NCBI RefSeq assembly: GCF_037042905.1
Contig: NC_087251.1
Coordinates: 25,918,001-25,982,000 of the forward strand
From: Lytechinus pictus
Lineage: Eukaryota
Direction of reading: 5' to 3'
Length of the DNA: 64,000 nt
Positions 4,501 through 64,000 of the stretch are shown piece after piece (position 1 is the stretch's first letter; every line of letters begins with the position of its first letter). Position numbers and translations under genes: made by a program. The notes beneath the pieces were generated by a model, which saw only the letters and a program-made list of their open reading frames with translations, was not told the origin of the DNA and searched no databases.

Positions 4501-4821
4501 TAAAGTCAGATTTTTATTAGGTAATAAATTTTGGTATCCATTCAGGGGCTGCGGAGCGATTTTCAAAGTGGGGGGGGGGGGCTGACCATGCAAAAATTCA
4601 CAATCCGATTGTCATTTTTATGTTTATGTACACGGTTTTGGAAAAAAGTGGGAGCCTGAAGCCCCCCCCCCCCCCCCCCGCTTCCACGGACTCTGCATTT
4701 CACAAGGAACTCTCACTGTATTAGTTTTAAAACAGAAAAATTAAGAAAAATAAAATCCACAGATTCGCTTTTCTCCATCGTAGCTGGCGCAACAACTTTG
4801 TTCGTAAAATATCACATCAAA

Positions 4822-29600: not shown

Positions 29601-32600
29601 GCAGTCTCGCCTGCATTACGCGATTTAATATAGCAGCAGTGCTAACTTTGAAAACTACAATAAAATAATCATTCACAAAAACACCATTCATATAATGACA
29701 TAATACCACGTTCATTGACCATAAATGACATTTGAACGGTGACTTAAGACTTGTCAACTACACCCATGTCCACATTTCATTCACTCTATCCATAAACTTC
29801 AAAGTTATGATGGCAATTCAACAATTACCCCAACATGGCCTAAGTTTATTGACCTTAACTGACCTTTGACCTTGGTTTTGTGACCTGAAACTCACAGGGG
29901 ATGTTCAGTTATACTTGATTACTCTTATATCCCAAGTTTTATGAACTAGATCTATAAACTTTCAGAGTTATGATGGTAATTCAACAAATACCCCCAACAT
30001 GGCCAAAGTTCATTGACCTTTAATGACCTTTGACCATGGTCATGTGACCTGAAACTCGTACAGGATGTTCAGTGATACTTGATTACTCTTATGTCCAAGT
30101 TTTATGAACTAGATCTATAAACTTTCAGAGTTAGGATGGTAATTTAACAAATACCCCCAACACGCCCAAAGTTCATTGACCTTAAATGGCCATTGACCAT
30201 GGTCATGTGACCTGAAACTCGCACAGGATATTCAGTGGTACTTGATTAACCTAATGTCCAAGTTTCATGAACTAGATCCATAAATTTTCAAAGTTATGAT
30301 GGTAATTCAACAAATACCCCCAACTTGGCCAAAGTTCATTGACCCTAAATGACCTTTGACCTTGGTCATGTGACCTGAAACTCAGGCAGGATGTTCACTC
30401 ATACTTGATTAACCTTATGTCCAAGTTTCATGAACTAGATCCATAAATTTTAAAAGTTATGATAGTAATTCAACAAATACCCCCAACTTGACCAAAGTTC
30501 ATTGACCCTAAATGACCTTTGACCTTGGTCACGTGACCTGAAACTCAAGCAGGATGTTCACTAATACTTGATTAACCTTATGCCCATGTTTCATGAACTA
30601 GGTCCATATACTTTCTAAGTTATGATGTCATTTCAAAAACTTAACCTTAGGTTAAGATTTGATGTTGACGCCGCCGCCGTTGCCGTCGGAAAAGCGGCGC
30701 CTATAGTCTCGCTCTGCTATGCAGGCGAAACAAAAATTACCATTTCATTGTCAGATGATGCAATGGAGCTCTGAGGAGTTAGTTTCTCTTACCTTGTAAG
30801 CCCTTAACAGTGTCAGGTGATCACTATTACCAATAGCAAACTCTTGTCGCTTTTTATCTGCCTGGTCTCGTTTGTCAAATGGTGCCATCTAAATGGAAAT
30901 TAAAGACAAAGATAATAATGTGAAGTGATGAGGAAATGCACATATTACAATCTATACAATTAGCCTTAATTCGAACACATATTTCAGTAATCAATAATGA
31001 TAACTGAAATTATGCTACCTTCACTTTGTTATAGGAGTGTATTATATTTTTAATTTCATTTATTTCCTATTCTCATAATGAAAATAAAATCATTGGTATG
31101 CACAAAAAAATATATGAACAATAAAAAGAATCAACATAGAGGCTTCTCAGTACAACATATATCTTTCACAGGGATGTGTTTGGTCCTGAAATGGACCACC
31201 AAAACTCAATGATATGGCAAAGTATATTCTTGCCATCTTCAGGGGGAAAATAAAGAATATTGGGGACCCAGCAGAGAGTTCCAAGTATTGAAATCAAATA
31301 TACAAAAGGGAATAGAGAGAGGTGGGGTGATCATGTGAAAAATAACTGTTGAATACACTTACGAATGGTGATCTAAAGCTGAGACTTGCTGCGATGGTTA
31401 GGACTGGGTCAAGGCACTGGAAGATGGCTCCAAAGAGCATCAGCTTACCGATCCTAACATCTACCGGAAGAGATGCAAGATGGTAGCCCAGAGATGTCAG
31501 ATCCTAAAAGAAAGAGAAAGACGGTAACATTTTGATGGCTTGGGTAAGGATACAAGTGCATATCATGAGACATTGTTGATGTTGTACATAATAGACACAG
31601 TATTTAAACAATGATGATGAGGGTGACAAATTTCATTTAGGCCTATATCAATATTTCTATTTTGTTGGCTGATATTTTTATTTTATTATTTTATCACAAT
31701 TCATGCTCACACCAAAAATGTGCAACATAGAGAGATACAATCAATATGTTCCATTAACAGTAGTTTTTTTGTGCATGGTTTGCCATAGGCTAACAAAGTA
31801 CAGTCATGCTTAATTGTACATTCAATTTTTTTTTTTTACTAAGCACACACATGGGACTACAACTACAATAATTTGACCCATTTGATAGATGCTTGCATTT
31901 TTGCTATGTATATACTAAAGCCTTGCCACAGAACACAGCTGACTGTATTAAAGTCTAGTACTGGGATCTTCTATTAAAAAAAAATCCCTAGACGTCCCCA
32001 AGATGCTGGCATCAGAATAACATGAGGATAAACACCACTGTACTTTAAAGACATTCCAGAAAATCTTTACCAAAATGCAAATCATGTCATGCTTGTCATG
32101 AATGTGATTTCTCTCAGAGTTCAAATCTCTTGATACATAGTGTTATGAAAACAAATTAAAACATAACAAACATCTGTTGAAGCATGCATCAGAATGTCAA
32201 TTCCTACATGGTTGGAAATATGATTACAGTAGAAGGGATCTCGGAAGCTTTCCTATGCATCTCATGATAGGGGAGAAAGAGTTCTTTCTTCTTTGAACTG
32301 AGCATTCTTCATAGGCCAACAGAATAAATCATCTATCAAAAAAATGGCAGACAACAAATGGAAAGAACTTGCTACCTATCACAGGGAGGCCACTCATGGC
32401 ATCTTTAGTATTGCCCCATCCTTGCAAATCAAACAGATTTGAGAAGTGGGCTAGTATTGATTGGCAATGCCATGTTGTTAGTTCCTCTCAACAAAGCATC
32501 TCGATAGCTGCTACTATGCCACGTGTATTTGCATATTTTGTTTTTGATCAATCCTAGAATCATATAGAATCAAATCAATCAGACAAATTTGACTAAAATC

Positions 32601-44600: not shown

Positions 44601-46220
44601 TTCACGTTTAAAGAGAGGAAAGGGGCAATGGTATATAAAATCATATTACTCTCTTTTGCAGCGGTAAATGTATTTTCGGGCAAGTATTTTCCAACTATTT
44701 AGAAATTCACTTGCCCGACCGGGCAAGTGCTTCTAAAAAGTTATGTAGCACCCTGAACAAAACAGCAAATCGTACATTGAAACTCATGCATGTATCATTA
44801 AGAATATTGAAAGGATAAGAAATACTAAAGATTTATTCATTTCCACAATCTCACAAGTGAATTTCTTCAGACTCACCTTGTTCTGACAATATCGAGTGAT
44901 TTTTCAAAAAATCTTTGTAGAGTTGTTCCAATGCTAAACCTGCATCTGCATCATTATCCTCTAATGCTTGCAGACTGTCTTTCTTAGGGTATCCACACCT
45001 AAACACCAACAACAAATAAAAGATATCAAATGTTGCCAAGTAAAGACATGCTTGATTTTTTTTTACTTGCATCTACATGTATTAAGAAGCAAAGACCAGA
45101 ATTAACCAAATCAAATACAAGTATACAGAAGCTAAAAGGAACAAACAGCATGAACTCTGACCTCTGATTGGTACACAGAAGATAAAGTTAAATGTAGTGG
45201 TATTAGAAGAGTCGTGTTGCTATGATAAACTAACCTGATAAGTTTCTCCACAGCATATTTACTGATCTTTTGGGTATCATCTTTGTTTTCTCTATCATCC
45301 TCTTCCTCATGCCAGACACCGAGAGGGGTAAAGCTTGAACCAGATGCCTCTACCTTCAGGGAGTTGTCATCAGTCCAGAAGTGACGATTGGTATCATAAT
45401 CAAGCTCTTCGTAGTCTTCTAGTCTGCAAAGCATGAGATTAAGGGACAGTGATTATTTCAAGTACAGGATATTCTACTGACTGTGTGTAAACAGGGTACT
45501 TAGATCATGGATATTGCATCCTTGATTTTCATACATTCTACAGAGTGTTCTCCATCGAGAAACATTGTAGTTGCTAACAATGCCAGGCTGTCACCGAGTA
45601 TAACTAATCTTACATACCCTGTGATATCATTAAAATGTATTACCCTCCTCCCTCTTCCTTCCCCTTTCTTCCTCGTCCTCTCCCCCTCTCAATAGGATTT
45701 GTCAACAAAATAAACATAGACGGAAAGAAAAATAAGAAAAAGAATGGGAATAAAAAATATTGGAGCGTTGCTAGAAACTTCCAATTTATTGGATGTTTAT
45801 GTTTTTTGTCTTAGTTCTATTGTTATTATCCTCAAATTTGCAGAACAATAAATTGGCACATCTCAAATATCTCACTTATCACCTAGACAAAAATTTAATA
45901 AGATCCCCCATCCCCCTAAAAAACAACAACAACAAGTTTTCTGTGTGCACAAACTACACATCATGAATATGCATCACCTCATTTGCATATCTCATTATGT
46001 ATGCAAACTTCAATTTTTTACATGATATGGACACTTTAGAAACACATCCCATTACAGAACTGATCTCACTATCTTCAAAAGTTATCTAAAATGGACATAA
46101 AGATGATTTTGTTTTTTTATTCATATAAATCAAGCAAAAAATAGTGATTTATATTTCACTAACCACCACACAAAAATATGGTGAAATTTCATAGATGTGA
46201 GGCATCCCTTCATGTACCAT

Positions 46221-46251
<31 letters not shown>

Positions 46252-47621
46252 GCCTAGGTAGCCCTAGGTTCCACAGCTTATTAGTCTGTGAGGAATTTCT
46301 TTAAGGGGACAGGTTGCCCTTGGTGTGGCCTACCATACTTCGGTGGGATGCCCATGATTGGTGATCTTCCCTCGTCCCCAAAATATAATCAAAAGTCAGG
46401 ATAGGTTGTAAACTCTTAAGGTTTCCATAGTGTAAAAGAAGGGTGTAATAGACAATCATATGCCCACAAAATAATACATGGTGTACTGTGCCCCACTACA
46501 CTCCAATGAGTGTAGTGGGGGCACAGCATAGCTCTAATCGGGACCAGGTATCACGCACACCTAGCCTGTAATCCTACCCCATGTCTAGGTCCAGGTCTGC
46601 TCCATGTAGTTCCCTCAAGATATCCTTGACTAGTTCCTGGTTTTCATCACTCATATGGAGGGACTGCATCTTGACCTTGGAGGGTTGATAGTTGCCTCTC
46701 CTGCGACTAGGAGCATTGGATTGATAAGATTGGTAGGCCTTTGGTTGGTGAGTTTGAGGTGCCTGGTAGCTGTGACAAAAGAAAAACACAATGGAAGTAA
46801 TGTGTAAATTGTAATGAATCACTTCAATTTCATTTATTTAATTTGAAATTGACTGAATTATTTTAAGTTGAAATTGCAGATCTGCATAAGAAATAATCAA
46901 ACATACACAAAAAAGTAACTTCACTTATTCTATCCAAAATTCTATCCAATCTCATTTTTGTATTCTATCCAATCTCATTTTTGTATATAATTGTTTTAAT
47001 ATTGAATGTTTAACGTCCAATCAAAGTTGTTTCACAAAATTTCAAACAATCAATATGAATCTTCATATTATTCTAATAAACCTCCAAAATTAGATGAAAT
47101 TCATTTAAAATATAAGATAGATCACTCAATCAAATAGCAATTGTCAATCAAGTTTATACATGTATTGCAAAACAACTATTGGATAATATTTTCCAACACT
47201 ACCTGGATGTCTTCTGCTTGTCCTGTTTGGGCATGAGTACAAAGTCATCATCATCATAGTCATAGGACATGGATACACTCTTGCACTTCCTGGCTCCTGT
47301 GTCTGCCACCGGTCCATAGGGCTTTAGGTTTGACCCTGGCTGCTGGCCTCCACCACCTCTAGCTCCTCCTCCTCTTCCACCACGGCCACTACCTCTTCCT
47401 CCTCGTCCTCTCCCTTCTCCACCTCTACCTCCTCCTCCTCTACCTCTTCCTCCTCCTCTCCCTCCTCCTCCTCTCCCTTCTCCTCCTCTCCCTTCTCCTC
47501 CTCTCCCTTCTCCTCCTCTCCCTTCTCCTCCGCCTCTTCCTCCCCTTCCTCCACGGTTGGCCCTGCCTCCTCCCCTGTTCGGCTTGCCACCCCTTCTCAC
47601 TGCTCCTGATGGTTGGCTCAT
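23594..47621 (-). CDS. DHX57: Putative ATP-dependent RNA helicase DHX57 (DExH box); 25 coding exons, about 1454 aa
   Basis: Exons, all GT-AG with consistent phases, total 4365 nt: 47621-47203, 46769-46578, 45423-45235, 44998-44877, 42730-41874, 41585-41464, 40683-40488, 39916-39792, 38778-38645, 38074-38020, 37424-37210, 36677-36571, 36130-36024, 35531-35358, 34798-34635, 34405-34329, 33993-33898, 31503-31363, 30888-30793, 28201-28118, 27667-27530, 25249-25073, 24807-24718, 24156-24013, 23737-23594. Features: N-terminal RGG tract, UBA-like segment, CCCH finger ([19 protein letters not shown]), RWD-like region, [44 protein letters not shown], and C-terminus [22 protein letters not shown] typical of DHX57. 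Confidence 0.95.
25391..27042. mobile_element. Non-autonomous DNA transposon with 6-bp TSD (hAT-like) in a DHX57 intron
   Basis: TIR CATACCTGCCAACC / GGTTGGCAGGTATG, TSD TCCCTA on both sides, subterminal AATCGGAAT repeats, CpG-rich interior. Confidence 0.88.
29582..30735. mobile_element. Helentron-associated (HINE/DINE-1-like) non-autonomous element with internal 163-bp tandem repeats
   Basis: AACAAG start, subterminal inverted repeat GTCTCGCCTGCAT / ATGCAGGCGAAAC, about 5-6 units of about 163 bp (GACCTTTGACCTTGGTCATGTGACCTGAAACTC), (GCC)n microsatellite, terminal stem-loop, A-rich end, no TSD. Confidence 0.75.
32718..33300 (+). repeat. Two diverged direct repeats of about 140 bp flanking an L2/CR1-type LINE 3' fragment (about 32915-33045)
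   Basis: Repeat core CAACATTTGGTGCAGGTCAAA..CATCCATGAAAATCTGATCAGCTC occurs twice. The intervening DNA translates [21 protein letters not shown]..(frameshift)FKSSLKTF, typical of an L2 ORF2 C-terminus. Confidence 0.65.
39942..40086. mobile_element. PIF/Harbinger-like MITE (145 bp)
   Basis: TIR GGTCCGTTGCAGAAAGAGTTGC / GCAACTCTTTCTGCAACGGACC with 3-bp TSD CTG. Confidence 0.8.
41100..41383 (-). mobile_element. tRNA-derived SINE with the same head and core as 20622
   Basis: Reverse complement begins GGGGGCATCGTGGTCTAGTG..GGTTCAAATCCCAGCCATGG..CTCGACCCAGATGAGGTAAATGGGTACC. Confidence 0.8.
42956..44755. mobile_element. Non-autonomous DNA transposon with 5-bp TSD (hAT5-like) and an internal CT-rich tract (about 43720-44575)
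   Basis: TIR CAGGGTGCGACATAA / TTATGTAGCACCCTG, TSD AACAA, subterminal CTTGCCCG..CGGGCAAG motifs at both ends. Confidence 0.88.
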
Positions 47622-48066
47622 GGTGTAACCGTGTTAGGCTTACTGAAGTCAAAGCACTGTAGAGAGTTTAGGGTGCATGATCATCTAGTATATCCTTGAC
47701 AAGGCGAATCTATGTAATATAAAGATATATTAATAATTAATCAGAATTCAGAAAAAAAATACATTCCCTTATGAATTTAACCAGTGGTGTAATGTGCAAA
47801 AAATCTTGAGGGGGCCAGATATGGTGTATCGGGAAAAATTATTGAAAACTTACAAGTGAATGAAGTGAGCGAGCGAAGATATCTAACATTTTAATTACAA
47901 AAATCCAATTTTGTAACAGATGTTGACATAATATTTTAAGAATAATATCATATTTCACCCTTCTCTCTTTCCTGTTCCTTTTTCTTGGTCGAGAAAAAAT
48001 TGAGGAGGGGGCAAGCACCCCCCCCCCCATCTGCACATCACTCATTTTAACTTTAAAAACTTATAA

Positions 48067-49036
48067 AACAAGTGGAATGCCTCTGGCGGTCTCACCTGAC
48101 CTGCATCACTCGATTCAATATATTAGCAGTGCTGACTTTCAAAACTACTATAAAATAATTATTCACAAAAAACACCATTCATATAATGATACAATACTAC
48201 GTTCATTGACATTTGACCTTGATCATGTGACCTAAAACTTGTCAGTGATACTTGATTACCCCTATATCCACATTTTATACACTATATCTATAAACTCTGA
48301 AAGTTATGACAGCAATCTAATGATTACCTCTAAAATGGCCAAAGTTCAATGAACTTAAATGACCTTTGACATTGGTCATGTGACCTGAAACTTTGATGGG
48401 ATCTTGATTTCTCTTATGTCCAAGTTTCATGAATCAAATCCATAAACTTTCAAAGTTATTATGGTAATTCATCAGATACCCCCCATATTGCCAAAGTTCA
48501 TTGACATTTGACGTTGGTCATGTGACCTGAAATTCGCAAAGGATGTTCAGTGATACTTGATTACTCTTATGTCCAAGTTTTATGAACTAGACCAATAAAC
48601 TTTCAAAGTTATGATGGTAATTAAACAAATACCCCCAACTTGGCCAAAGTTCATTGACCTTACATGACCTTTGACCTTGATCATGTGACCTGAAACTCAC
48701 ACAGGATGTTCAGTGATACTTGATTACTCTTATGTCTAAGTTTCATGAATCAGATCCATAAACTTTTAAAGTTATGATGGTAATTCAACAGATACCCCCA
48801 ATTTGGCCAAAGTTCATTGACCCTAAATGACCTTTGTCATGTGACTTGAAACTCAGGCAGGATGTTTAGTAATACTTGATTAACCTTATGGCCAAGTTTC
48901 ATGAACTAGGTCCATATACTTTCTAAGTTATGCTGTCATTTCAAAAACTTAACCTTCGGTTAAGATTTGGTGTTGACGCCGCCGCCGTCGGAAAAGCGGC
49001 GCATATAGTCTTACTCTGCTATGCAGGTGAGACAAT
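48067..49036. mobile_element. Second HINE/DINE-1-like element, same family as 29582
   Basis: Start AACAAGTGGAATGCCTCTGG, internal units of about 150-165 bp, end GACGCCGCCGCCGTCGGAAAAGCGGCGC..GCTATGCAGGTGAGAC. Confidence 0.75.
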
Positions 49037-50312
49037 AACTTTTTTTGATCTGTTGATGGATTTAACTTAAACCTTCACCAATATTTTTCATTACTTTTTC
49101 TTTGATTTTATAGTTTTACAATAAACTTTTTATCAGGGTTAACCATGAACTTCCCTTTTAAAGGAAACCAAAACCCAAGAAGAGAAGCAATCTTATTGGA
49201 AATAGTAAAATGAGTTCATCAAAATCGGTTATGAAATCAGCTAGTTATGGAATTTTGAAAAATCTACTTGTAGGATGGGGGGTCGGGTGTCCGGACACTT
49301 TATATTTTTGAAGCCTTTTTTTGTCTTTGGATTACATGAAAAAAAAAAGAATTCAATAGTTGTAATCATCTTCTATTTTGTTCTCTAATTTCCTAACATT
49401 TTGTACTAAAAAATGATGAAACTTTGCTTGTAAATTTTTCCAAATGACTTTCTAAAATTGATCGTCCGAACACACAACCTGTCCGGACACACAACTGGCA
49501 GACTGGGTATACTTTCTATGCCTATATGGATATGGGGATTCTCAAATTGGCAAACATGCTTCAAAATGGCTGATTTTGTGGACATTTCTACGTAAAGAAT
49601 GGAAATTTTAATCAATTTTCGTAATCGTGAACAGGATAGCTATATAACTAAACCATGTATAATTTGATGCGAGCGCGATGCGAGCGCGAAGCGCGAGCGG
49701 AAAAAAAATCGAGATTTAGACCTAAAAACGGGACACTCTATTCACGTTTTGTAAATCATGAAAAGAATGAGTAATAGGGGATCTTCGTACATTAATAATG
49801 CGAGCACAAAGCGCGAGCAGAAAATTTTTGATATTGTGATTTTAAACTGGAAAATGATTTAAATTAAGAGAACAAGTTGAGTATCTGAATAAACATACGC
49901 GCGTGTTTCATATTTAGACCTAAAATCTAGGCATTCTAAATAATCTTTTATCATGAAAATCAAAGTGAGCGCGAGCTTAAACTATTTGATATTCCGATCT
50001 GAAAAGAGTTTTTTATAGGACTGGGACATCCTTAGGACATGTCATCTTATGAAAATATTGACTGTCTTCCTATTCCTCTTGCTAAGCGCGAGATGAAACA
50101 ATTAAAAGGGACAATTTGATTATTTAATTGATATCTTATTCATTAATGCCTAATGAGGGCACGAAATCTGATGATATTATGGCCTGAAAACTGGACATTC
50201 CAAGCACTTTTGTAATTATAAATAGGATGCAAGTTAATATATTTAAATCATTAAAGCGAGCGCAAATTGTGAGCCTATTTTTTTATACACTGTCATGAAA
50301 AGGGGATTTTAA

Positions 50313-50903
50313 AGGTCAAGTCCACCCCAGGAAAATGCTGACTTGAACAAATAGAGAAAAATCAAACTAGCATAATGCTGAAAATTTCATCAAAATCGGA
50401 TGTAAAATAAGAAAGTTATGACATTTTAAAGTTTCGCTTATTTTTCACAAAACAGTGATATGCACGACTAGGTGAGTCAGTCAATGATGTCCATCACTCA
50501 CTATTTCTTTTGTTTTTTATTGTTGAAATTATACAATATTTCATTTTTTATAGATTTAACAATAAGGACCAACTTGACTGAACCATATAGTATAAAACAA
50601 TGCTAATTCTACATGTTCAGGGAGTAATTAATCGTTGTATCACTTGACAATGAGGAGAAAATTAGAATATATCATATTTCATACAATAAAATACAAAAGA
50701 AATAGTGAGTGGATGACGTCATAGTCTCCTCATTTGCATACCAGCCAGGATGTGCATATAACTGTTTTGTGAAATTAAGCAAAACTTTAAAATGTCAGAA
50801 CTTTCTTTTTTTACATCCGATTTTGATGAAATTTTCAGTGTTATGCTTGTTGGATTTTTCTCTTTTTATATAAATCAACTTTTTGTTGGGGTGGACTTGT
50901 CCT
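50313..50903. mobile_element. Kolobok-like MITE with long imperfect TIRs, inserted into an older GCGAGCGCGAAGCGCGAGC-rich element
   Basis: TTAA|AGGTCAAGTCCACCCCA ... TGGGGTGGACTTGTCCT|TTAA. TTAA TSD with RR..YY termini, and more than 150 bp of internal inverted similarity. Confidence 0.85.
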
Positions 50904-51053
50904 TTAAGTAGTTTGTTGTATAATCAATATTGAGACAACACAACCTGACAACTCGCCAATCAAAATGCAAGCGTGCAGCGCGAGCTGATACGTTTTTACA
51001 ATGAGACCTGAAGAGCGATATTTTGAAAATTTTAGGGAATACACGAAAATAAA

Positions 51054-51699
51054 AGGTATGATGGGGTGTCCAAACTTCGCGCACTTTTCAAAAATATTCA
51101 TCAGGCTTAAATTTTTTTCACAAAATATTCATAATTTATACAAAACCAATTAAAAAAATAGTTACCACATTGACGGCAAGATCGTAAACTATAAAATCAT
51201 GGACGAAAACGTAAAGTAGGTCAAGGGGATTCGCCAGTATCGCGATCTCAAAATTCTATTCCGATCGGCGAATGCGCGCTGTGCTGGATAACCGTTCAGA
51301 AAAAGTGTGACCTAACTTCGCGGACCAAAGTTTTTGCGGACATTTAAACAAAAACTCAAGCTAAAAAAGTGAAATATTTATATCAGATTGATGGCAAAAT
51401 GCTATAGAATCGGTTAGTACCACATTTTAACTCACATTTTTGATGATTTCTGCTTGCAAAATGGTGATATCGTGATGCTTGTTGAGAATATCAGATTTCT
51501 TCAAAACGGGCGCTAAACGTGACAAATTTGACGATCTTTTCATGAATACTGAACTCATCCTAAAGAAAATTACACCAAAGGGTAATTTTAGGTCGCTTTT
51601 CACGTTGATGTCAGATTTTAAGGATATTGGCTAGTTTTTTAGATAATGACCGTCCGCGAAGTATGGACACGCGCGAAGTTTGGACTCACTGCCATACCT
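51054..51699. mobile_element. Probable MITE, unclassified
   Basis: Imperfect inverted ends AGGTATGATGGGGTGTCCAAACTTCGCGC / GCGCGAAGTTTGGACTCACTGCCATACCT. No TSD seen. Confidence 0.5.
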
Positions 51700-54391
51700 G
51701 CAAGATAAATCAAAATTTGCGAGCGCGCAGCGCGAGCAGAAACTTTAATATTCAGACCATAAAACTGACATTTTTACCACTCCTAGTACCAATGAGGTCC
51801 AACATTACATGTATGGACCTCATAGGCGACATCAGTAGTATTTTTGGTTAGAAATCTCTGAGAACAGGATATTTAAACATTATATCACAAGTACAAGCTA
51901 TAATTCCTTTCTCTTATTTAAATTATAATTTTATAGTGTAAATGCATCGTTAGCAACAACAAAAAATGAAAGAAATGAAGGGGAACTTACATTTTCACCG
52001 GTATTTTATAGATGGCAAATATAGCGATCTTCAACGCTTATATATAAGCGTCGAAATTTGTAGCCATCTCCTTGTATTAGTCTATATTATACGACGTGTC
52101 AAATTGTAGCGAACTAGTTCGCTATTTCCAGATCTCCTCTATATATATATACACGACGGGAAATTGTAGCGAACTAGTTCGCTATTTTCCAGATCTCCTG
52201 TATATACATACGATGGGAAATTGTAGCGAACTAGTTCGCTATTTTCCAGATCTCCTCTTAACGACGGGAAATTGTAGCGAACTAGTTCGCTATTTTCCAG
52301 ATCTCCTCTATATACAGCCATCTCCTTGTATTAGTCTATATTATACGACGTGTCAAATTGTAGCGAACTAGTTCGCTATTTCCAGATCTCCTCTATATAT
52401 ATATACACGACGGGAAATTGTAGCGAACTAGTTCGCTATTTTCCAGATCTCCTGTATATACATACGATGGGAAATTGTAGCGAACTAGTTCGCTATTTTC
52501 CAGATCTCCTCTTAACGACGGGAAATTGTAGCGAACTAGTTCGCTATTTTCCAGATCTCCTCTATATACATACGATGGGAAATTGTAGCGAACTATAGTT
52601 CGCTATTTTCCAATTCTCCTCTATGTATACGATGGGAAATTGTAGCGAACTAGTTCGCTATTTTCCAGATCTCCTCTATATATATATACACGACGGGAAA
52701 TTGTAGCGAACTAGTTCGCTATTTTCCAGATCTCCTGTATATACATACGATGGGAAATTGTAGCGAACTAGTTCGCTATTTTCCAGATCTCCTCTATATA
52801 TATATACACGACGGGAAATTGTAGCGAACTAGTTCGCTATTTTCCAGATCTCCTATCGCTATTTTCCAATTCTCCTCTATGTATACGATGGGAAATTGTA
52901 GCGAACTAGTTCGCTATTTTCCAGATCTCCTCTATATATATATACACGACGGGAAATTGTAGCGAACTAGTTCGCTATTTTCCAGATCTCCTGTATATAC
53001 ATACGATGGGAAATTGTAGCGAACTAGTTCGCTATTTTCCAGATCTCCTCTTAACGACGGGAAATTGTAGCGAACTAGTTCGCTATTTTCCAGATCTCCT
53101 CTATATACATACGATGGGAAATTGTAGCGAACTAGTTCGCTATTTTCCAGATCTCCTCTATATATATACGACGGGAAATTGTAGCGAACTAGTTCGCTAT
53201 TTTTCGGATATCCTCGATATATACGACGGGAAATTGTAGCGAACTAGTTCGCTATTTTCCAGATCTCCTCTATATATATACGACGGGAAATTGTAGCGAA
53301 CTAGTTCGCTATTTTTCGGATATCCTCGATATATACGACGGGAATTTGTAGCGAACTAGTTCGCTATTTTCCAGATCTCCTCTATATACATACGACGGGA
53401 AATTGTAGCGAACTAGTTCGCTATTTTTCGGATCTCCTCGATATATACACGATGGGGAATTGTAGCGAACTAGTTCGCTACAATTCCAATCGTATTGTTA
53501 GAGGAGATCTGGAAAATAGCAAACTAGTTCGCTACAATTCCCCCTCGTCTATATATCGGGGGGATCCGAAAAAATAGCGAACTAGTTCGCTACAATTCCC
53601 ATCGTATATATAGGCCCTAGAGGAGATCTGGAAAATAGCGAACTAGTTCGCTACAATTCCAATCGTATATATCGAGGAGATCCGAAAAATAGCGAACTAG
53701 TTCGCTACAATTCCCACTGGTGTATATATCGAGGAGATCTGGAAATAGCGAACTAGTTCGCTACAATTTCCCCTCGTCTATATATCGAGGAGATCCAAAA
53801 TAGCGAACTAGTTCGCTAAAATTCCAATCGTATATATCGAGGAGATCCGAAAAATAGCGAACTAGTTCGCTACAATTCCCACTGGTGTATATATCGAGGA
53901 GATCTGGATATAGCGAACTAGTTCGCTACAATTTCCCCTCAGGCGCGGATCCAGGAGGGGGCCGAGCCGGCCCCGGCCCCCCCTATTTTTTGACAACCTG
54001 CAGAAAAAGTGTACTCTTTAACTTGATAGAAACTATGAAAAACAGAAAGAAAAGTAAGAAAGAGGTATCATACCCATGATGTGTAATTTACAACCTCGTA
54101 ACGGCCGGCCAACCCCGAAAGGAAACAATAAAAGGGTGAAGGGGAGAATTAGAAAATAAACTTTATATAAAAAATTTCGCTCGCGCTTCGCGCTCGCATT
54201 GATTGTGTAATGAATCCCATTCAAGAGGATTAAATGGCACTTATACATCCAGATCTGAAATCAATTTTGCACACAATATTTTAGCTCGCACATCAAGCTT
54301 TATTATTTTGTCTGTTTTACACAAATTGTTTATATCAAAGTTTTCAGCTCGCGCTGCGCGCTGGCATTGTTTGATTTGTGAGTTACCTATC

Positions 54392-55885
54392 CACTGGCGT
54401 AAATCCGTGTTGATGGGAGGGGGGGATGACTGAAATATTTTGGCATTTTTTTTGCAATCATGTTTTTAGATATGCAAGGAATTGCCATTGATATGTCCAC
54501 GGTGGCGTACCATGGGTCACGGCATGGGGGGGGCACCAGCAAAAATTTTGAATCACTGAGTGAGTGCGCTAGTGAGCGCGCTCAGTTGCCAGTTATACTG
54601 ACCTAATAGAGACATTTTAAGGACAATGTCATTAAATTGATATGTATCTCACTGATCAAATAATGCGAGCGCGAAGCGCGAGCTGAAATTTTTTCATATT
54701 CACACCTAAAAAGGGACATTATAATCAAATTTGTGTAATCATGATAGGTACCTGTCTCGGTAAACAATGCGAGCGCGAAGCGCGAGTTGAAAATTTAGAT
54801 AATTCAGACCTGAAGTGGGGCATTCTAAGGTTTTTTGTAAGAATTAACTAGGACCATACGTATTTCATTAACCAAATGATGCGAGCGCGAAGCGCGAGCT
54901 GAAAATTTTTGATATTCCGATCAGAAGGGACATTTTAAGGGCTGATTTTAAAGGAATTTATGAAAAGCAGACATATCTCACCAATCCACTAATGCGAACG
55001 TAATCACGGACATGAAATGTTTCATATATACGAAGACCTTAACATGGGGCAATCACTTTTTGAGTCGTGAAAAAGAAGCATATGTCACTACATAAAACAA
55101 TGATAACTCAAGTGCTAGGAAATATATTTGGTTTATATTGAGTTGAAAACGGGATGTTTTAGTACAACAGGATTATATATTACGTTAAACAGACAATGCG
55201 AGCACCAGGAACAATGAAGACGTAGGCCCTGGGCAAATTATGTTTCATAAAGTTATGATAAATATGTTTCTTATGTAATGTAACATAACATAATTATAAT
55301 ATAATATAACATTATAATGAATAATATTTTCTTCTTTCCCACTACATTTCTCTTCCTTTCTCCCTCTTTTCTCCTTTCCCCTTTCCCCGTTTTGTTTTTT
55401 TGGTCAGCCGATGGGGGGGGGGGGGGATGTGCCCCCCATGCCCCCCGTAGTTACGCCACTGTATGTCCATATGGCAAATACCCCTCCAATATTATTATCT
55501 TTTTTACCCCATGATGGTTTAATGGTTTTATTAGAGATTACATTAAAAAAATGTTGACATTCCATCTTAATCCCTTCCCAAAGACCCCAACATTGATGAA
55601 TTGGAAGAAACAGGGGTTTCTCTTCAATGTTATAATAAGGACATAAGTATTTCGTTTGGAAATGGTGAACTGGCTCTTTATTTGCATTTTATGATTCAAT
55701 AATATTGTTTTATTTGTTAAGCGGTATTTTAGGAAGAATTTTCACCAATAAAATAATTATCTCTTGTGATTTTTTTTTAATTTCTTTCGTAAAAAGTGGG
55801 GGGGATGTTTGTACAGGCCATCCCCCCCTCCTCGAAAAGTGGGGGGGATATATCCCCCCCATCCCCCCCGGGATTTACGCCAGTG
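54392..55885. mobile_element. Nested hAT-type MITE with 8-bp TSD
   Basis: TIR CACTGGCGTAAATCC / GGATTTACGCCAGTG, TSD TACCTATC. Confidence 0.9.
54500..55461. mobile_element. Innermost nested hAT-type MITE with 8-bp TSD
   Basis: TIR CGGTGGCGTA / TACGCCACTG, TSD TATGTCCA. Confidence 0.88.
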
Positions 55886-56247
55886 TACCTATCCTCTGGA
55901 AATTCTTACCAAAATATGTCAAAATTCTCCTTTATCATGTCAGTTTATAAAAGAAAATGAGCTCGTGCTTCGCGCTCGCATTTAATTATTTGAGAAACAC
56001 AGCTTTTTCTGTATTTAAATAAAAACGCGCTTAGACTGTCCAGTTTTCAGGTCGGAATATCAAAAATTTTGAGCTCGCACTTCGCACTCTCATTATTTAA
56101 TTGGTGATACTTGTATCCTTTTCATTAATCACTAAAAACAGTCCTAATTGAGTCCCTTTTCACGTTACTATGATAAAATTTAGGCTCGCGCTTCGCGCTC
56201 GCGTTGTTTAGTTGGATACTTATCTTTTTTCATAATTATAATTATCT

Positions 56248-56469
56248 TGGTGGTGATTTTTTTGGTGGTGATTTTTTTACCTGATTGCTAAGAAAGCATG
56301 AATGCTTGTAAGCAAGCAACCAGAGGACCGACGGCTTAAGGTCCCCTCCGAAGGACCTGGTACTGAGGATTAATGCCTTACCAAAGGGCACTAGCGCACC
56401 AAGTGGGAATCGAACCCGGGTTACCGGAATACGAGTCCCCCGCTCTACCGACTGAGCTCTCTCGCCTCC
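56248..56469 (-). mobile_element. tRNA-derived SINE of a second family, inside the 53940 element
   Basis: Reverse complement GGAGGCGAGAGAGCTCAGTCGGTAGAGC (A box)..GGTTCGATTCCC (B box)..GTGCCCTTTGGTAAGGCA, ending in a short tandem-repeat tail. Confidence 0.8.
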
Positions 56470-57279
56470 TCAGAATCTTCAGGTCTAAGGACATGAAATA
56501 TCAAAGAATTTGAGCTCGCGCTTCGCGCTCGCATTATATATTAAGACCACACGAGATACCTTATCTTGTTTATAATAATAAAATTAACATATACTTAAAA
56601 CTTCAGTCTCTCGTTAGGACTACCCCCTAAAAAACCGAAAAAATCAGATTATAGCGGCCAATCGAGAAAAACGTTGATAAAAATATTTTTCGGCCCCCCC
56701 CTATTGGCGAAAGCTGGATCCGCCCCTGCCCCTCGTCTATAATCGAGGAGATCCGAAATAGCGAACTAGTTCGCTACAATTCCCACTGGTGTATATATCG
56801 AGGAGATCTGGAAATAGCGAACTAGTTCGCTACCATTTCCGCCCGTCGTGTATATACAGGAGATCTGGAAAATAGCGAACTAGTTCGCTACAATTTCCGC
56901 CCGTCGTGTATATACAGGAGATCTGGAAAATAGCGAACTAGTTCGCTACAATTTCCCGTCGTATATATATATATAGAGCAGATTTGGAAATAGCGAACTA
57001 GTTCGCTACAATTTCCCGTCGTTAAGAGGAGATCTGGAAAATAGCGAACTAGTTCGCTACAATTTCCCATCGTATGTATATACAGGAGATCTGGAAAATA
57101 GCGAACTAGTTCGCTACAATTTCCCGTCGTGTATATATATATAGAGGAGATCTGGAAATAGCGAACTAGTTCGCTACAATTTGACACGTCGTATAATATA
57201 CACTAATACAAGGAGATGGCTACAAATTTCGACGCTTATATATAAGCGTTTAAGATCGCTATATTTGCCATCTTATAAT

Positions 57280-57775
57280 TTCCCCATTTTCACGGCTTTT
57301 TCCTGATTTTCTGGGCAGCTGCTCTTCTCTTCTGACTCGCGATCGAAGCTGATATGAAGATCACGTGATTCGCGTTCTCGTCAGCTGATCGGTTGGTTAT
57401 TCTTTTCGTCAGACGTTTATAATGCTAGCATTCATCGCTAATTTAGGTGGAAGAGATTGAAGTTAAACAGCGCCAGGTCGGAATCATAATTATTTTGGAA
57501 GAGTGTATTTATACACTCGATCTCATACCTGACGTAGACGGCGCTATTCAACAAATGCACAATCTTCAATATAAAAAATAAAACAGAAAGAACGCCTTGA
57601 ACACAGGCCAAAATGCCTAACGATTTCTCCGCGGCATTAACAACTATCGTAAAGGGCGCTCCATTTATCAATAAAGATGGACGCTAAGCTGTCTATGGCG
57701 ACAAAATTTGCCGCAAATATTTACGAAGAATTGTGAGAAATGGTCTGAAAATGCAACAAAAGAACCGGTGAGTAC
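57280..57775. promoter_or_regulatory. Probable bidirectional CpG-rich promoter (DHX57 leftwards, unknown gene rightwards with first-exon donor CCG|GTGAGT at 57768)
   Basis: CpG-enriched unique sequence with CTCGCGA, E-box ATCACGTGAT, TGACGT and ATGGCG motifs, plus a strong + strand donor. Inference only. Confidence 0.5.
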
Positions 57776-58033
57776 CGATTAAACATTATTAAATTTGTAA
57801 ATAGATTATACATACCTTGTAGATTTAGTTTTTAAGGTGATATTAGTGCTTAGTTCTAAGCTAGGGAGGCCCAAACGCGCGTGAGTGGAGTCCCAGTTTA
57901 TTAGCACGGGTAAGTATTGGGGTGTCGCCTAGAGTGATTTTTACAGAGCACTTTTTAAAAATCACACAAAATAATGAAAGTTCGATTTCCGAGATGAAAT
58001 ATGTTTTGTATATTGACTTCCAAACTCTATAAT

Positions 58034-58489
58034 CAGTAGAGGCGCACGGCCAATATTGGAGACTATCTCCAATGTGGGAGATTATCTCCAATATCAGAGA
58101 CTTTTTGTAAAGAATTTTGGTATCCAATTTTAGAGACAGTCTCCAGTTTTGGAGTCCAATTTCCTTTGTTTACATTTGCTGCAAAAGGATTACCTTGGCC
58201 GCTTGGCGGCAAATAAAAATGTGATAAGCAGATTCCTCATAAAAAATTACCCCTTTTCACCGTCTACTTTAAAAATTCACCGTCTACTTTTGTTTTGATA
58301 AGGATTTTTGTTGTCAATCACACACAAAACAAATGGGCTTCTGACCTCAGTGAGACAAAATTTTGGGTGGAAAAAATCATGCTTTTGTTGGTGTTGTTTC
58401 TTTTGTCCTCTTGCAAAGCAAGTCTCCAATGAGGGAGATTGTCTCCCCTATTGGAGAGAGTCTCCCATATTGGCCGTGCGCCTCTACTG
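58034..58489. mobile_element. MITE with 23-bp perfect TIR and 5-bp TSD
   Basis: CAGTAGAGGCGCACGGCCAATAT / ATATTGGCCGTGCGCCTCTACTG, TSD ATAAT, subterminal GGAGAC..TCTCCA motifs. Confidence 0.9.
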
Positions 58490-59374
58490 ATAATCCATAT
58501 TGAACAAGATATAAAAATCACCTAACACTAGTAACAGGCAATACGAGCGCCAAGCTCGAGCAAAATTTTACATATTATAGTGACATGAAAGATTCTTTTT
58601 ATTTTCCAAGTCTTCCCCTCATCTTAATTCTTGTTTTATTTACTCATCTTCCTCCATGCAGAGCTTCTTTTTTCTCCTCTCTTTTCCCTCCTTTTTCCTT
58701 TTTTTTTCTTTCCTTTTTTCTTTTTTTTGCTCCACCAATAGGGGGGGGCGGGCCCCTCGGGCCCCCCCTGGATCCGCCTATGACATACCGGTACCGGTAT
58801 GTCAAGGTCAGGAGATAGGGAGAAATAAAAAATAAATGAAAATGATTTTAATAAAAAAAAAAACTACATGAAAGTTGAAACAGACGGCTGCCAGCTGTCT
58901 AACGTTAGACTTACCGGTACGGTCGGTACCTGACTGTACTTGCTGGACTTGGATCTAGACTAGAGTCTATTATTAAACGTTACGATCTAACTTGGTGCCT
59001 TTCTAATTTTTTCTAAATTTCTGTCTCCCCTGCGCGTCCCTGATGACGTTATTGCAACAGCGCCTAACTTAACTTCACACGCACACAGCCGATTGCCATT
59101 GCGCTATACCCATTAACCTCCCCACCACATCTGCTGCCCCCGTATGGAACGCGGAAAGGCTAAAATTTGATCACTGTCACTTTTGATTTGATGGACCTCC
59201 GTACCAGCCATCATCAAATCAAGTGCAGCCATCAGTAAATCAAAAGTGGCCATCATCATATCAATTTTAAGCATCATATCCCTCTGTACCAGCCATCATC
59301 AAATCAGTTTCTAACATCAAATCAATGTTGTCCTTTCGGCGTTCCTGATGTGCGCGCCAAAAGGACACCTGTAA

Positions 59375-61137
59375 GTTGATGGCAGCCACTTTTTATTTGA
59401 TGACGGTTACTTTTGACTTGATGACGGCCACTTTTTATTTGATGACGGTTACTTTTGACTTGATGACGGCCACTTTTTACTTGCTTTTTATTTGATGACG
59501 GTTACTTTTGACTTCATGACGGCCACTTTTGACTTGATGGCGGCTGCTTTTGATTCGATGATGGCTGCTTTTGATTTGATGATGGCTGCTTTTGATTCGA
59601 TAGTGGCCACTTTTGATTTGATGATGGCTGCTTCTGATTTGATGATGGTTGCTTTTGATTCGATAGTGGCCACTTTTGAACTGATGATGGCCACTTTAGA
59701 TTTGATGATGGTCACTTTCAATTTTTTTATCGCTTTTCATTTGATGGTCACTTTTTGTTTGATGGTCACTTTTTATTTGATCACTTAATTTGATGGTCAC
59801 TTTTTATTTGATGGTCACTTTTTATTTGATGGTCACTTTTCATTTGATGGTCACTTTTCATTTGATGGTCGCTTTTAATTTGATGGGCACCTTTTATTTG
59901 ATGATCACTTATTTGATGGTCACTTTTAATTTGATGGTCACTTTTAATTTGATGGTCACTTTTAATTTGATCATCAATTCTTATTTGATGGTCACTTTTA
60001 ATTTGATGGTCGCTTTTTATTTAATGGTCACTTTTTATTTGATGGTCACTTTAAATTTGATGGTCACTTTTTATTTGATGGTCATTTTTAATTTGATGCT
60101 CAGTTTTTATTTGATGGTCACTTTTAATTTGATGGTCGCTTTTTTGTTGCTCACTTTTTATTTGATGGTCACTTTTAATTTGATGGTCACTTTTTATTTG
60201 ATCATCACTTTTTATCTGATCATCACTTCTTTGACGGTCACTTTTTATTTGATGGTCACTTTTTATTTGATGCTCACTTTTCATTTTATGCTCATTTTTC
60301 ATTTGATGCTCACTTTTAATTTGATGATAGATTTTTATTTGATGGTCACTTTTTATTTGATGGTCGCTTTTAATTTGATGGGCACCTTTTATTTGATGAT
60401 CACTTATTTGATGGTCACTTTTTATTTGATGGTCACTTTTTATTTGATCATCACTTTTTATCTGATCATCACTTCTTTGACAGTCACTTTTTATTTGATG
60501 GTCACTTTTTATTTGATGCTCACTTTTCATTTGATGCTCACTTTTTATTTGATGGTCGCTTTTTATTTGATGGTCACTTTTTATTTGATGGTCACTTTTA
60601 ATTTGATGGTCACTTTTTTGTTGGTCACTTTTTATTTGATGGTCACTTTTTATTTGTTGGTCACTTTTTATTTGATGGTCACTTTTTATTTGATGGTTAC
60701 TTTATATTTGATGCTCATTTTTTATTTGATGATCACTTTTTATTAGATGATCACTTTTTATTTGATCATCACTTCTTTGACGGTCACTTTTTATTTGATG
60801 GTCACTTATTATTTGATGCTAACTTTTTATTTGATGCTCACTTTTAATTTGATGGTCGCTTTTTATTTGATGGTTATTTTTTATTTGATGGCTACTTTAA
60901 ATTTGATGATCACTTTTTATTTGATGGTTACTTTTTATTTGATCGTCACTTCTTCTTTGATGGTCACTTTTCTTTTGATCGTCGCTTTTCATTTGATCAT
61001 CACAATTTAAGTTGATGGTTTCGGCATTCCATACATGGTCGCTTTATATTTGATGGTCGCTTTTCATTTGATCGTCGCTTTTATTTGATCGGCACTTTTC
61101 ATTTGGTCGTCGCTTTTCATTTGATCATCACTTTTTA
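59375..61137. repeat. Minisatellite: 21-bp units grading into 18-bp units (TTTGATGGTCACTTTTTA)n
   Basis: Direct reading. Generates the repetitive LMVTFY / KSDHQI ORFs. Confidence 0.95.
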
Positions 61138-64000
61138 CAGTACGTGCGCATAAACGTGTCGCAGTGAGCATGCACTGAGCAAATCCTCATGTACGTATAG
61201 CTAGCGCGCTCTTTTTGCTTCCGAGAATTGAAGTGCAGGTGCATATATATGAATCTATTGATCGTGAAAAAATAAATCTGGAAAATGGAGGGTATACTTA
61301 ATAGTTTAGGGATGCCTCAATCAGTTATTAACAACTTTCAACGGGAAGGGGTAAGTTGAAGTTAGAATTTACTTAGATCTAGACCTACGCTTTAGATCTA
61401 ACTTTGTTTGTCTATTTTGTTGGTGTGAAACGGTACTATAGGCCTTGGCCTAGGCCCTACTCCCTCACAACATTGTCACTGGGGCGTTGCACTGGGGCCT
61501 ATGCTCTAGTATAGACCGGCTAGGCTAGGGCCCTATATATAAGTGTCACTAGGCCTAGTCACTAATAAGCCTAGACCAACCTGACTCCATTGTTGAGAAC
61601 TGTGCTAGTAACTTAGTGTTAGAGCCAGAGCTACACACGAAACCCATGCAAATGCAGAAAAAATACAGTTAGTGTTCAGTTCTTAAATATTTTCAGATCT
61701 CTAGACCCTAATAATATTAATTTTAGCTGATGATTGGCATTGCCCATTTTGCAAATGCAGCGCGGCGGGGGCAGAGGGAGGGGGTAACACTAACGAGTAA
61801 CGTTGAGTCTTATCCATTGTAGTTATACACTCAAGCCTAGCGCCTATAACATACAGTTCAATTGTTACTGTTAACCCCCTACCCTCTACTCCTGCCCCCG
61901 TTGTGTTGAAGAAAACCTTTTTTTTTTTTTTTTTTTTTTTGCTATAGGCTATTCATATTTATATATATATATATAAACAAGGCCATAGATATGAATAACA
62001 ACAAACCGAGTCGCCCTTTTCCAAAACTCCCAACCCCCCTCCCCCCATAAAAATTTGTTGCGTCTATTATTGGGCTTATTTTCTTTTTACCCAAAATTAA
62101 GGGGGGGGGCTGCGTGCGCAACCTCCCAACCCCCTTGGCGACGGTCATGCAGTTGACCCACAGAAATTTAGAAAATTTATATTTTTCTTGCAAAAATGCA
62201 TAAAATTTACAAAAAATTGTGCAACAAATCCTTCAAGTTCTGCTCGATTGCTTCGCTCCCTCACTTTCGAATAGGGTCTATTTTTGAAAATTGCAAGAGT
62301 TTTTAACAATGATGGGATGAGGATGTTTTAAACACTCTATCAAAAGTAGGTTCAATTTTGCACCTTTACCAATGTCACACATGGAACACATTTAATGATG
62401 CAAATTTGCACCTTTCAGAAAAGAAATCACCTTAAAAGGTACAGCTTAATTGCACCTATTTTTCTGAAAGGTGCAAATTTGCATCATTAAATGTGTTCCA
62501 TGTGTGACATTGGTAAAGGTGCAAAATTGAACCTACTTTTGATAGAGTGTTTAAAACATCCTCATCCCATCATTGTTAAAAACTCTTGCAATTTTCAAAA
62601 ATAGACCCTATTCGAAAGTGAGGGAGCGAAGCAATCGAGCAGAACTTGAAGGATTTGTTGCACAATTTTTTGTAAATTTTATGCATTTTTGCAAGAAAAA
62701 TATAAATTTTCTAAATTTCTGTGGGTCAACTGCATGACCGTCGCCAAGGGGGTTGGGAGGTTGCGCACGCAGCCCCCCCCCCCCCCTTAATTTTGGGTAA
62801 AAAGAAAATAAGCCCAATAATAGACGCAACAAATTTTCTGGGGGGAGGGGGGTTGGGAGTTTTGGAAAAGGGCGACTCGGTTTGTTGTTATTCATATCTA
62901 TGGCCTTGTTTATATATATATATATAAATATGAATAGCCTATAGCAAAAAAAAAAAAAAAAAAAAAAAGGTTTTCTTCAACACAACGGGGGCAGGAGTAG
63001 AGGGTAGGGGGTTAACAGTAACAATTGAACTGTATGTTATAGGCGCTAGGCTTGAGTGTATAACTACAATGGATAAGACTCAACGTTACTCGTTAGTGTT
63101 ACCCCCTCCCTCTGCCCCCGCCGCGCTGCATTTGCAAAATGGGCAATGCCAATCATCAGCTAAAATTAATATTATTAGGGTCTAGAGATCTGAAAATATT
63201 TAAGAACTGAACACTAACTGTATTTTTTCTGCATTTGCATGGGTTTCGTGTGTAGCTCTGGCTCTAACACTAAGTTACTAGCACAGTTCTCAACAATGGA
63301 GTCAGGTTGGTCTAGGCTTATTAGTGACTAGGCCTAGTGACACTTATATATAGGGCCCTAGCCTAGCCGGTCTATACTAGAGCATAGGCCCCAGTGCAAC
63401 GCCCCAGTGACAATGTTGTGAGGGAGTAGGGCCTAGGCCAAGGCCTATAGTACCGTTTCACACCAACAAAATAGACAAACAAAGTTAGATCTAAAGCGTA
63501 GGTCTAGATCTAAGTAAATTCTAACTTCAACTTACCCCTTCCCGTTGAAAGTTGTTAATAACTGATTGAGGCATCCCTAAACTATTAAGTATACCCTCCA
63601 TTTTCCAGATTTATTTTTTCACGATCAATAGATTCATATATATGCACCTGCACTTCAATTCTCGGAAGCAAAAAGAGCGCGCTAGCTATACGTACATGAG
63701 GATTTGCTCAGTGCATGCTCACTGCGACACGTTTATGCGCACGTACTGTAAAAAGTGATGATCAAATGAAAAGCGACGACCAAATGAAAAGTGCCGATCA
63801 AATAAAAGCGACGATCAAATGAAAAGCGACCATCAAATATAAAGCGACCATGTATGGAATGCCGAAACCATCAACTTAAATTGTGATGATCAAATGAAAA
63901 GCGACGATCAAAAGAAAAGTGACCATCAAAGAAGAAGTGACGATCAAATAAAAAGTAACCATCAAATAAAAAGTGATCATCAAATTTAAAGTAGCCATCA
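60886..64000. repeat. Large near-perfect inverted duplication (arms 60886-62422 and 62460-64000, right arm cut by the window edge; 37-bp spacer)
   Basis: The right arm is the reverse complement of the left. The only differences I noticed are G9 vs C14 (about 62101/62773) and ATAAAAA vs AGAAAA (about 62047/62839). Confidence 0.95.
62333..62549. mobile_element. Small CACT-ended (EnSpm/CACTA-like) MITE at the palindrome centre
   Basis: CACTCTATCAAAAGTAGGTTCAATTTTGCACCTTT ... AAAGGTGCAAAATTGAACCTACTTTTGATAGAGTG with repeated GCACCT motifs. Boundaries are inferred from the CACT terminus because the flanks are also symmetric. Confidence 0.6.

Follow-up and report, generated by a model that had tools for sequence, protein, structure and literature searches.

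A foldback transposon inserted at the first splice donor of DHX57 in the sea urchin Lytechinus pictus

We analyzed a stretch of 64,000 nucleotides from Lytechinus pictus (assembly GCF_037042905.1, contig NC_087251.1, positions 25,918,001 to 25,982,000 of the forward strand; hereafter the window), in which a foldback element with long inverted arms lies at the 5′ end of DHX57, a gene of the minus strand. The locus raises the question of where exactly the element landed with respect to the first exon and what this did to the allele. An initial annotation of the window had put the element inside the non-coding first exon of DHX57. This placement held, at the extreme 3′ end of the exon, as shown by reads of an allele that lacks the element. 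The identity of the element and its placement at exon 1 are close to certain, while the complete explanation, an insertion at the splice donor followed by a knock-down of the gene, is somewhat probable.

Raw RNA runs X23 and X24 (about 6 in 100 of each were read; 248 and 92 reads were placed) and contig sets X8 and X11 were compared with positions 57183–58025 of the window. These were 4 of the 24 runs listed; small-share runs (X12–X20, two seawater runs among them) were left out. A total of 25 RNA reads of X23 and one DNA contig of X8 stopped matching the window at 57285. Past this point, the X23 consensus was identical to positions 51960–51989 of the window at 30 of 30 letters, and 23 letters of the X8 contig matched the same segment by eye. 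Because both continue with letters that match the window up to 51989, the empty allele joins 51989 to 57285. At the junction, coverage on the side of the element amounted to 2 reads in X23 and about 1 in X24; in X8 it was 3.4 versus 38.3. These element-side reads carried G at 57251 and 4–8 or more other differences and thus derive from other ends or copies. At 57450, where the window has G, A was found in the X8 contig and in every read covering the site, 16 in X23 and 3 in X24. Among the sampled runs (three runs), the insertion was rare or private to the haplotype of the window.

Other variation was seen in the same exon. A stretch of 14 bp following 57415 was missing from the window and present in many reads and in X8, and variants at 57319 and 57328 were carried by about a third to half of the X23 and X24 reads and fixed in X11. 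Between 57319 and 57450, the variation in exon 1 divides the haplotypes into two deeply separated groups.

The join of the empty allele, seen in X23 and X8, set the ends of the element at 51999 and 57284 in place of those proposed initially; the site obtained earlier by removing the element kept 28 bp too many in comparison with the empty allele. Ends at 52010 and 57273 with a 3-bp (TAT) or 5-bp (TTATA) duplication, a reading available from the sequence alone, were ruled out by the reads. Of the X11 contigs, one matched the right end as far as 57284 before departing and another departed at 57273, which suggests two types of ends. The 9-bp target duplication CATTTTCAC was the longest direct repeat around both ends. 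It spans exon-1 positions −8 to −1 plus intron position +1, the G of the donor GT. The promoter-side copy lacks the GT, and an intact AAAT/GTAAGT lies beyond the left end of the element, where the GT starts 9 bp away with 8 exon bases in between, rather than 20 bp away as previously stated. We conclude that this is a real and recent insertion at the exon-1 donor of DHX57.

The minus-strand gene was identified as L. pictus DHX57. Its RWD and CCCH domains were found by Pfam on one internal exon, which also retrieved named DHX57 proteins. The L. pictus protein XP_054758550.2 was 100% identical in 18 of 26 tblastn stretches, and that of L. variegatus in 7 of 26 (three cluster members compared); the stretches with less than 100% identity to XP_054758550.2 appear to reflect exon-border overrun. 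Full-length similarity together with the RWD and CCCH domains supports the assignment as a DHX57 orthologue. On whether DHX57 is essential, two predicted human knockouts are tabulated in PMC5062577; they were not used as evidence. Residue 1 of the protein corresponds to the ATG at 47621, so the sequence upstream of it is untranslated. The acceptor TTACATAG ends at 47710, confirming the initial annotation, which had called for a non-coding exon further right. Three acceptors of exon 2 appear to be in use, and this could tune translation: in the segment 47622–47710 of the minus strand, two upstream ATGs occur in the 88-nt untranslated part of the longest form and none in that of the shortest.

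Transcribed exon-1 DNA was found right of the element in X23 and X24, where promoter-like DNA had been predicted. In X24, the depth at 57299–57327 was 18.5 for first mates on the plus strand versus 0.4 for those on the minus strand, falling to 0.9 by 57530; X23 demonstrated the same slope above a two-strand background (33 versus 12). Given the usual library orientation, this coverage is minus-strand RNA. No sharp transcription start in exon 1 was evident among the loose ends listed. The case named in advance as opposing the placement was a DHX57 start left of 52011; RNA of the empty allele began right of the element within the compared stretch.

Eight X24 reads departed at 57286, immediately before the donor. 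Their loose parts had a median length of 99 letters and gave a mixed consensus (agreement of 0.57). Three forms of exon 2, whose first bases are 47709, 47656, and 47638, jointly accounted for 28 of 30 columns of this consensus, which none of 5,000 shuffles equaled, and an equal mix of the three predicts an agreement of 0.52. One or two acceptors gave a poorer fit (360 and 103 of 5,000 shuffles as good, respectively). The donor itself (AAAT/GTAAGT at 51990, minus strand) was correctly noted by the initial annotation, but its description as strong was not supported on sequence alone: it scored 3.7 bits, near the middle of the range of 20 approximate DHX57 donors, which runs from −6.5 to 8.0. It is one of 14 minus-strand sites scoring at least 3 within 47710–59200 and therefore could not be selected by score; the reads single it out. 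A higher-scoring donor at 57528 was rejected as the first-exon donor, the minus-strand depth of X24 being about 1 there, with no loose end among those listed. Those at 51697, 48095, and 58914 also score higher and were not taken as the exon-1 donor; they lie outside the compared stretch, and minor use of them is possible. In metagenome contigs, the exon-1 pattern had a single match (L001), a chance run of 22 bases in a bacterial-looking AT-rich coding contig.

Coordinates of the foldback element and of the DHX57 5′ region in the window
Feature	Position	Strand	Remarks
DHX57 exon 2	47202..47709	-	Acceptors ending 47710, 47657, 47639; start codon 47621
Exon-1 donor GTAAGT	51985..51990	-	5.3 kb away from the remaining exon; the matching base, 57286, is where 8 X24 reads depart
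Left copy of the 9-bp target duplication CATTTTCAC	51990..51998		Longest direct repeat around both ends; reads
Whole non-autonomous foldback element (putative Mutator/Foldback type), 5,286 bp	51999..57284		Empty-allele join 51989/57285; X11 contig to 57284
Left non-inverted 11-bp tip, begins CGGT	51999..52009	+	5/11 positions match the right tip
Outer non-array part of left arm	52010..52100	+	Mirror 57183-57273, 89/91 bp identical
Left array, 23 forward units of ~57 bp with 18-bp palindromic core	52101..53462	+	Sequence repeats
Central unit (53463-53480) plus the 8 reversed units of the inner part	53463..53939	-	Folds back on left array
Nested 2,789-bp insert, CAG...CTG ends	53940..56728		5-bp duplication CCCCT at 53935-53939 and 56729-56733
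Right array, 8 outer reversed units	56734..57182	-	Sequence repeats
Right non-inverted 11-bp tip, ends CCC	57274..57284	+	X11 contig
Right copy of the target duplication CATTTTCAC	57285..57293		Donor broken: AAAT/GGGAAA on minus strand
DHX57 non-coding exon 1, upstream part	57286..57500	-	Diffuse 5′ end ~57350-57500; stranded X24 depth

Without its nested insert, the host element is a palindrome of 2,492 bp that has no middle domain. It is built of 40 units, including 23 forward, 1 central, and 16 reversed ones, and the reversed array is interrupted by the nested insert. The inverted arms, 52010–52295 and 56988–57273, were identical at 284 of 286 bp, and an exact 254-bp duplication was found at the left array (52062–52315 repeated as 52316–52569). 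The outermost part of the left arm forms an imperfect 61-nt hairpin (52010–52070, −20.6 kcal/mol), while the segment 53000–53939 folds with −661.7 kcal/mol (z of −58; none of 20 shuffles as good). No match to transposase families was found in the 15 stop-to-stop frames of at least 70 aa; one repeat-driven PsaJ score without a matched stretch exceeded the cut-off in this profile search. The lack of a transposase is as expected for a non-autonomous copy. On the minus strand, 52010–57273 contains 4 AATAAA and 65 ATG. All four AATAAA (55714, 55682, 55532, and 54304) belong to the nested insert, together with cryptic minus-strand donors at 56381 and 56280. A SINE-like, tRNA-derived piece with A/B box-like words (recognized by eye) was observed in the insert on the minus strand at 56290–56470 and holds the best cryptic donor, 56381; no tRNA was found in it by ARAGORN. 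This piece is a third level of nesting.

Concerning the origin of the allele, a non-autonomous transposon of the Mutator/Foldback type presumably moved by cut and paste into the open 5′ region of DHX57, using a transposase encoded at another locus. The cut, staggered by 9 bp, ran across the exon-1 donor, as the two copies of the duplication record, and left a promoter-side copy without GT and the intact donor 5.3 kb off. Polymerase from the normal start would reach the element after 70–200 nt. The best GT of exon 1 scored −1.1 and no GT of the right arm scored above 0, the first good donors being 56381 (3.9) and 56280 (3.3). Transcription would then mostly stop or be polyadenylated in the nested insert, or splicing from 56381 or 56280 would give a leader of 1.1–1.2 kb with 9–10 ATGs (counted from 57450, 1,069 nt and 9 ATGs for 56381, 1,170 nt and 10 ATGs for 56280). 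RNA crossing both arms would form a long duplex, inviting silencing. Since exon 1 and the right arm offer no usable donor and a read-through transcript would carry 4 AATAAA and 68 ATGs, a weak or null allele is favoured: a knock-down through early termination, cryptic splicing, and upstream ATGs is rather probable. An intact second copy of the gene probably covers this allele. In maize, neither read-through nor spliced-through products were found for any of the seven Mu alleles tested (bioRxiv 10.1101/2023.06.05.543741). In yeast, a longer derivative of Muta1 in a 5′ UTR blocked expression and one of 500 bp leaked (PMC5225508).

Several points weigh against this account. No reads of the filled haplotype were found in X23, X24, X8, or X11 at 57183–58025, and the steps leading to the knock-down are all inferred. 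The splice from exon 1 to exon 2 is well supported but was itself inferred from a mixed 30-letter consensus in which no joint was seen. An eight-read majority model reached only 22 of the 30 columns, and the model with three acceptor forms was picked after trials of one to five forms. Nine X24 reads leaving at 57285 were only partly explained, 21 of 30 letters matching the unspliced form; the best match in the window for a second source of these mixed reads (11 of 12 fixed letters, at 59128) was judged a chance one. Donor scores were obtained with a matrix of approximate frequencies. Among maize Mu insertions in 5′ UTRs, strong loss was reported for only 5 of 20 (PMC7337890), and 20 of 33 maize alleles restart transcription inside Mu, 5 of them in 5′ UTRs (bioRxiv 10.1101/2023.06.05.543741). 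The maize data may thus be read both for and against a knock-down.

The main rival to the knock-down is such a restart. A promoter in the left arm would read outward, the intact donor would be spliced to exon 2, and a nearly normal DHX57 with a transposon-derived exon 1 would result, and silencing of the family might switch its output on and off. The maize restarts argue for it, and so does the duplication, which leaves an intact donor immediately outside the left end. The left arm is CpG-rich (observed/expected ratio of about 1.6–1.7), and a start near 52100 would give an exon of 110 nt with one short upstream ORF. At the same time, about 3 RNA reads on the end of the family, from other copies in the sampled share of the runs, were all directed inward and none outward, and the left arm is a satellite-like palindrome rather than a terminal inverted repeat of MuDR. 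We consider the restart unlikely, but for this class of elements it is the best-documented alternative, absent from the three outcomes of the initial annotation (a self-complementary leader, an element spliced out, or silencing). If true, the element supplies a switchable first exon to a conserved gene in a laboratory sea urchin. An extended form of it, in which the satellite-armed foldback replaces exon 1 via its outward-reading left arm and DHX57, now a natural ‘Mu-suppressible’ allele, becomes subject to the silencing state of the family, with RNA from the promoter side feeding the hairpin that sets this state, is improbable.

Skipping of the element is slightly more doubtful still. In this case, a weak GT of exon 1 (57364, 57336, or 57293) would be spliced to exon 2, removing the element together with the intron and yielding a clean mRNA. 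First-exon definition favours a cap-proximal donor once the normal donor is lost, which would help such a product, but these sites scored −1.1, −1.6, and −4.3, respectively, and no loose ends were present at them among those listed, which come from empty alleles only.

A full read-through would produce a first exon of 5.4 kb spliced at 51990, with arms forming double-stranded RNA that is edited or diced. The donor at 51990 is intact and the arms would pair (213 bp perfectly, with −876.6 kcal/mol for the outer duplex, in addition to the inner hairpin with its z of −58). This outcome corresponds to the 5.3-kb self-complementary leader of the initial annotation; of the 5.29 kb of the element, only 2.49 kb are self-complementary. 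On the way, the transcript would pass the 4 AATAAA and two earlier donors with similar scores, the 68 ATGs in the leader of 5,460 nt (57450 to 51991) would block translation, and no such product was found for the seven maize alleles mentioned above. The full hairpin leader is unlikely, with a very low probability as the outcome of this allele, although read-through leaders may exist as a minor nascent species.

Finally, an assembly error at the filled site, to which the lack of the filled junction in any read or contig of X23, X24, X8, and X11 could point, is scarcely credible. Mis-joins do not produce an exact 9-bp duplication, unequal tips of the family type, a nested insert flanked by a 5-bp duplication of its own, and arms that differ at two positions.

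The insertion with its expected knock-down is an ordinary, well-built insertion mutation of a known kind, and no new type of element or mechanism is necessary to explain it. For the 5′ end of DHX57, gene models and promoter calls derived from the window sequence, as well as primers and guides designed on it, will misfit most animals, in which exon 1 and its donor are contiguous. The locus documents a recent jump of an apparently Mutator/Foldback-type element beside a start site in a sea urchin, and the true ends and duplication length of the family are now fixed. Moreover, the insertion provides a single-PCR marker for studying how an animal gene responds when a long hairpin element occupies its first splice site.

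Several other features of the window were observed. A full-length gene of the minor-spliceosome snRNA U12 (Rfam RF00007, 110.6 bits) is located within an intron of DHX57, antisense to that gene (46219–46372, plus strand), and arrays of one and the same 163-bp repeat occupy different DHX57 introns (29766–30627 and 48242–48932). Upstream of the promoter, a MITE-like piece of 466 bp was found at 58029–58494, with 75-bp inverted ends that are 84% identical. Good plus-strand donors at 57768 and 57910, along with up to 3 plus-strand X24 reads in 57550–57910, hint at a divergent gene sharing the DHX57 promoter, a candidate only. A second foldback-like structure extends over approximately 59160–64000 with tandem arrays of 21-bp and 18-bp units (59376–61137); its arms (60886–62422 and 62460–64000) are near-perfect complements around a 37-bp loop and continue past the window. 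Either this is an element of very recent origin or the assembly folded back on itself here. Downstream of DHX57 are Gemin6 (4660–7131, plus strand) and a UDP-glucuronosyltransferase gene (12503–14230, minus strand). GEMIN6, DHX57, and MORN2 lie next to one another in mammals, and the order of GEMIN6 and DHX57 may be old.

Regarding known systems, we found no description of this family or insertion in the literature, and no paper naming L. pictus on transposable elements or insertion polymorphism; the search did not extend to most of the subscription literature, the original descriptions of TU and Phantom included. Judged by its duplication and arm structure, the element appears to work like a non-autonomous Mutator/Foldback element. 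A duplication of 8–10 bp defined against the empty site is expected of this group, and 9 bp were found in X23 and X8; long inverted repeats with tandem subterminal units are represented by the 40 units and the outer arms described above. The transposase expected of the group is a DDE enzyme of the MULE/IS256 type, carried by the element or by its autonomous partner, and that of Phantom/Tm1-like elements combines FLYWCH and MULE domains; in the element itself, the 15 frames mentioned above gave no transposase match. The short, unequal, non-inverted tips inside the duplication, typical of Phantom/Tm1-like elements, are 11 bp long here. Foldback elements of the P superfamily (Galileo type) have a THAP/P transposase and duplications of 7–8 bp; with 9 bp, the element was not assigned to them.

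With Tm1 of root-knot nematodes (Mutator/Foldback, Phantom-like; PMC3169594), the element shares the 9-bp duplication, short unequal tips that flank the inverted repeat without being inverted themselves (A1 starts with CGGT and A2 ends with CCC, like the tips here), tandem-repeat arms of unequal number, gene-less members, and nested elements with duplications of their own. The tips are 11 bp here versus 7 in Tm1, the unit is about 57 bp with an 18-bp palindrome versus about 14 bp, and, unlike in Tm1, there is no middle domain, the arms meeting at one unit. Muta1 of Aedes aegypti, a type-2 Foldback MULE (PMC5225508), also has duplications of 8–9 bp, long arms with subterminal tandem repeats, and non-autonomous derivatives; its arms measure 145 bp, their repeats 12 bp, and the palindromic tip 10 bp, compared with arms of 1.0–1.5 kb here. 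Tetris of Drosophila virilis and the sea urchin TU, the latter likened by description only (PMC4079207), have long inverted arms with a tandem-repeat domain, duplications of 8–10 bp, and no coding capacity, as here, but possess a middle domain. Maize Mu, which is reported to land in 5′ UTRs with a 64- to 90-fold enrichment (PMC7337890), differs in several respects: the host here is an animal, the element consists of a satellite palindrome, the donor is split by the duplication itself, and the allele is known from DNA. What Mu insertions in 5′ UTRs, including Mu-suppressible ones, have in common with the DHX57 allele is an element of the Mutator type beside a start site and the same possible set of transcripts, which may terminate, restart, splice, or read through (bioRxiv 10.1101/2023.06.05.543741; PMC7337890).

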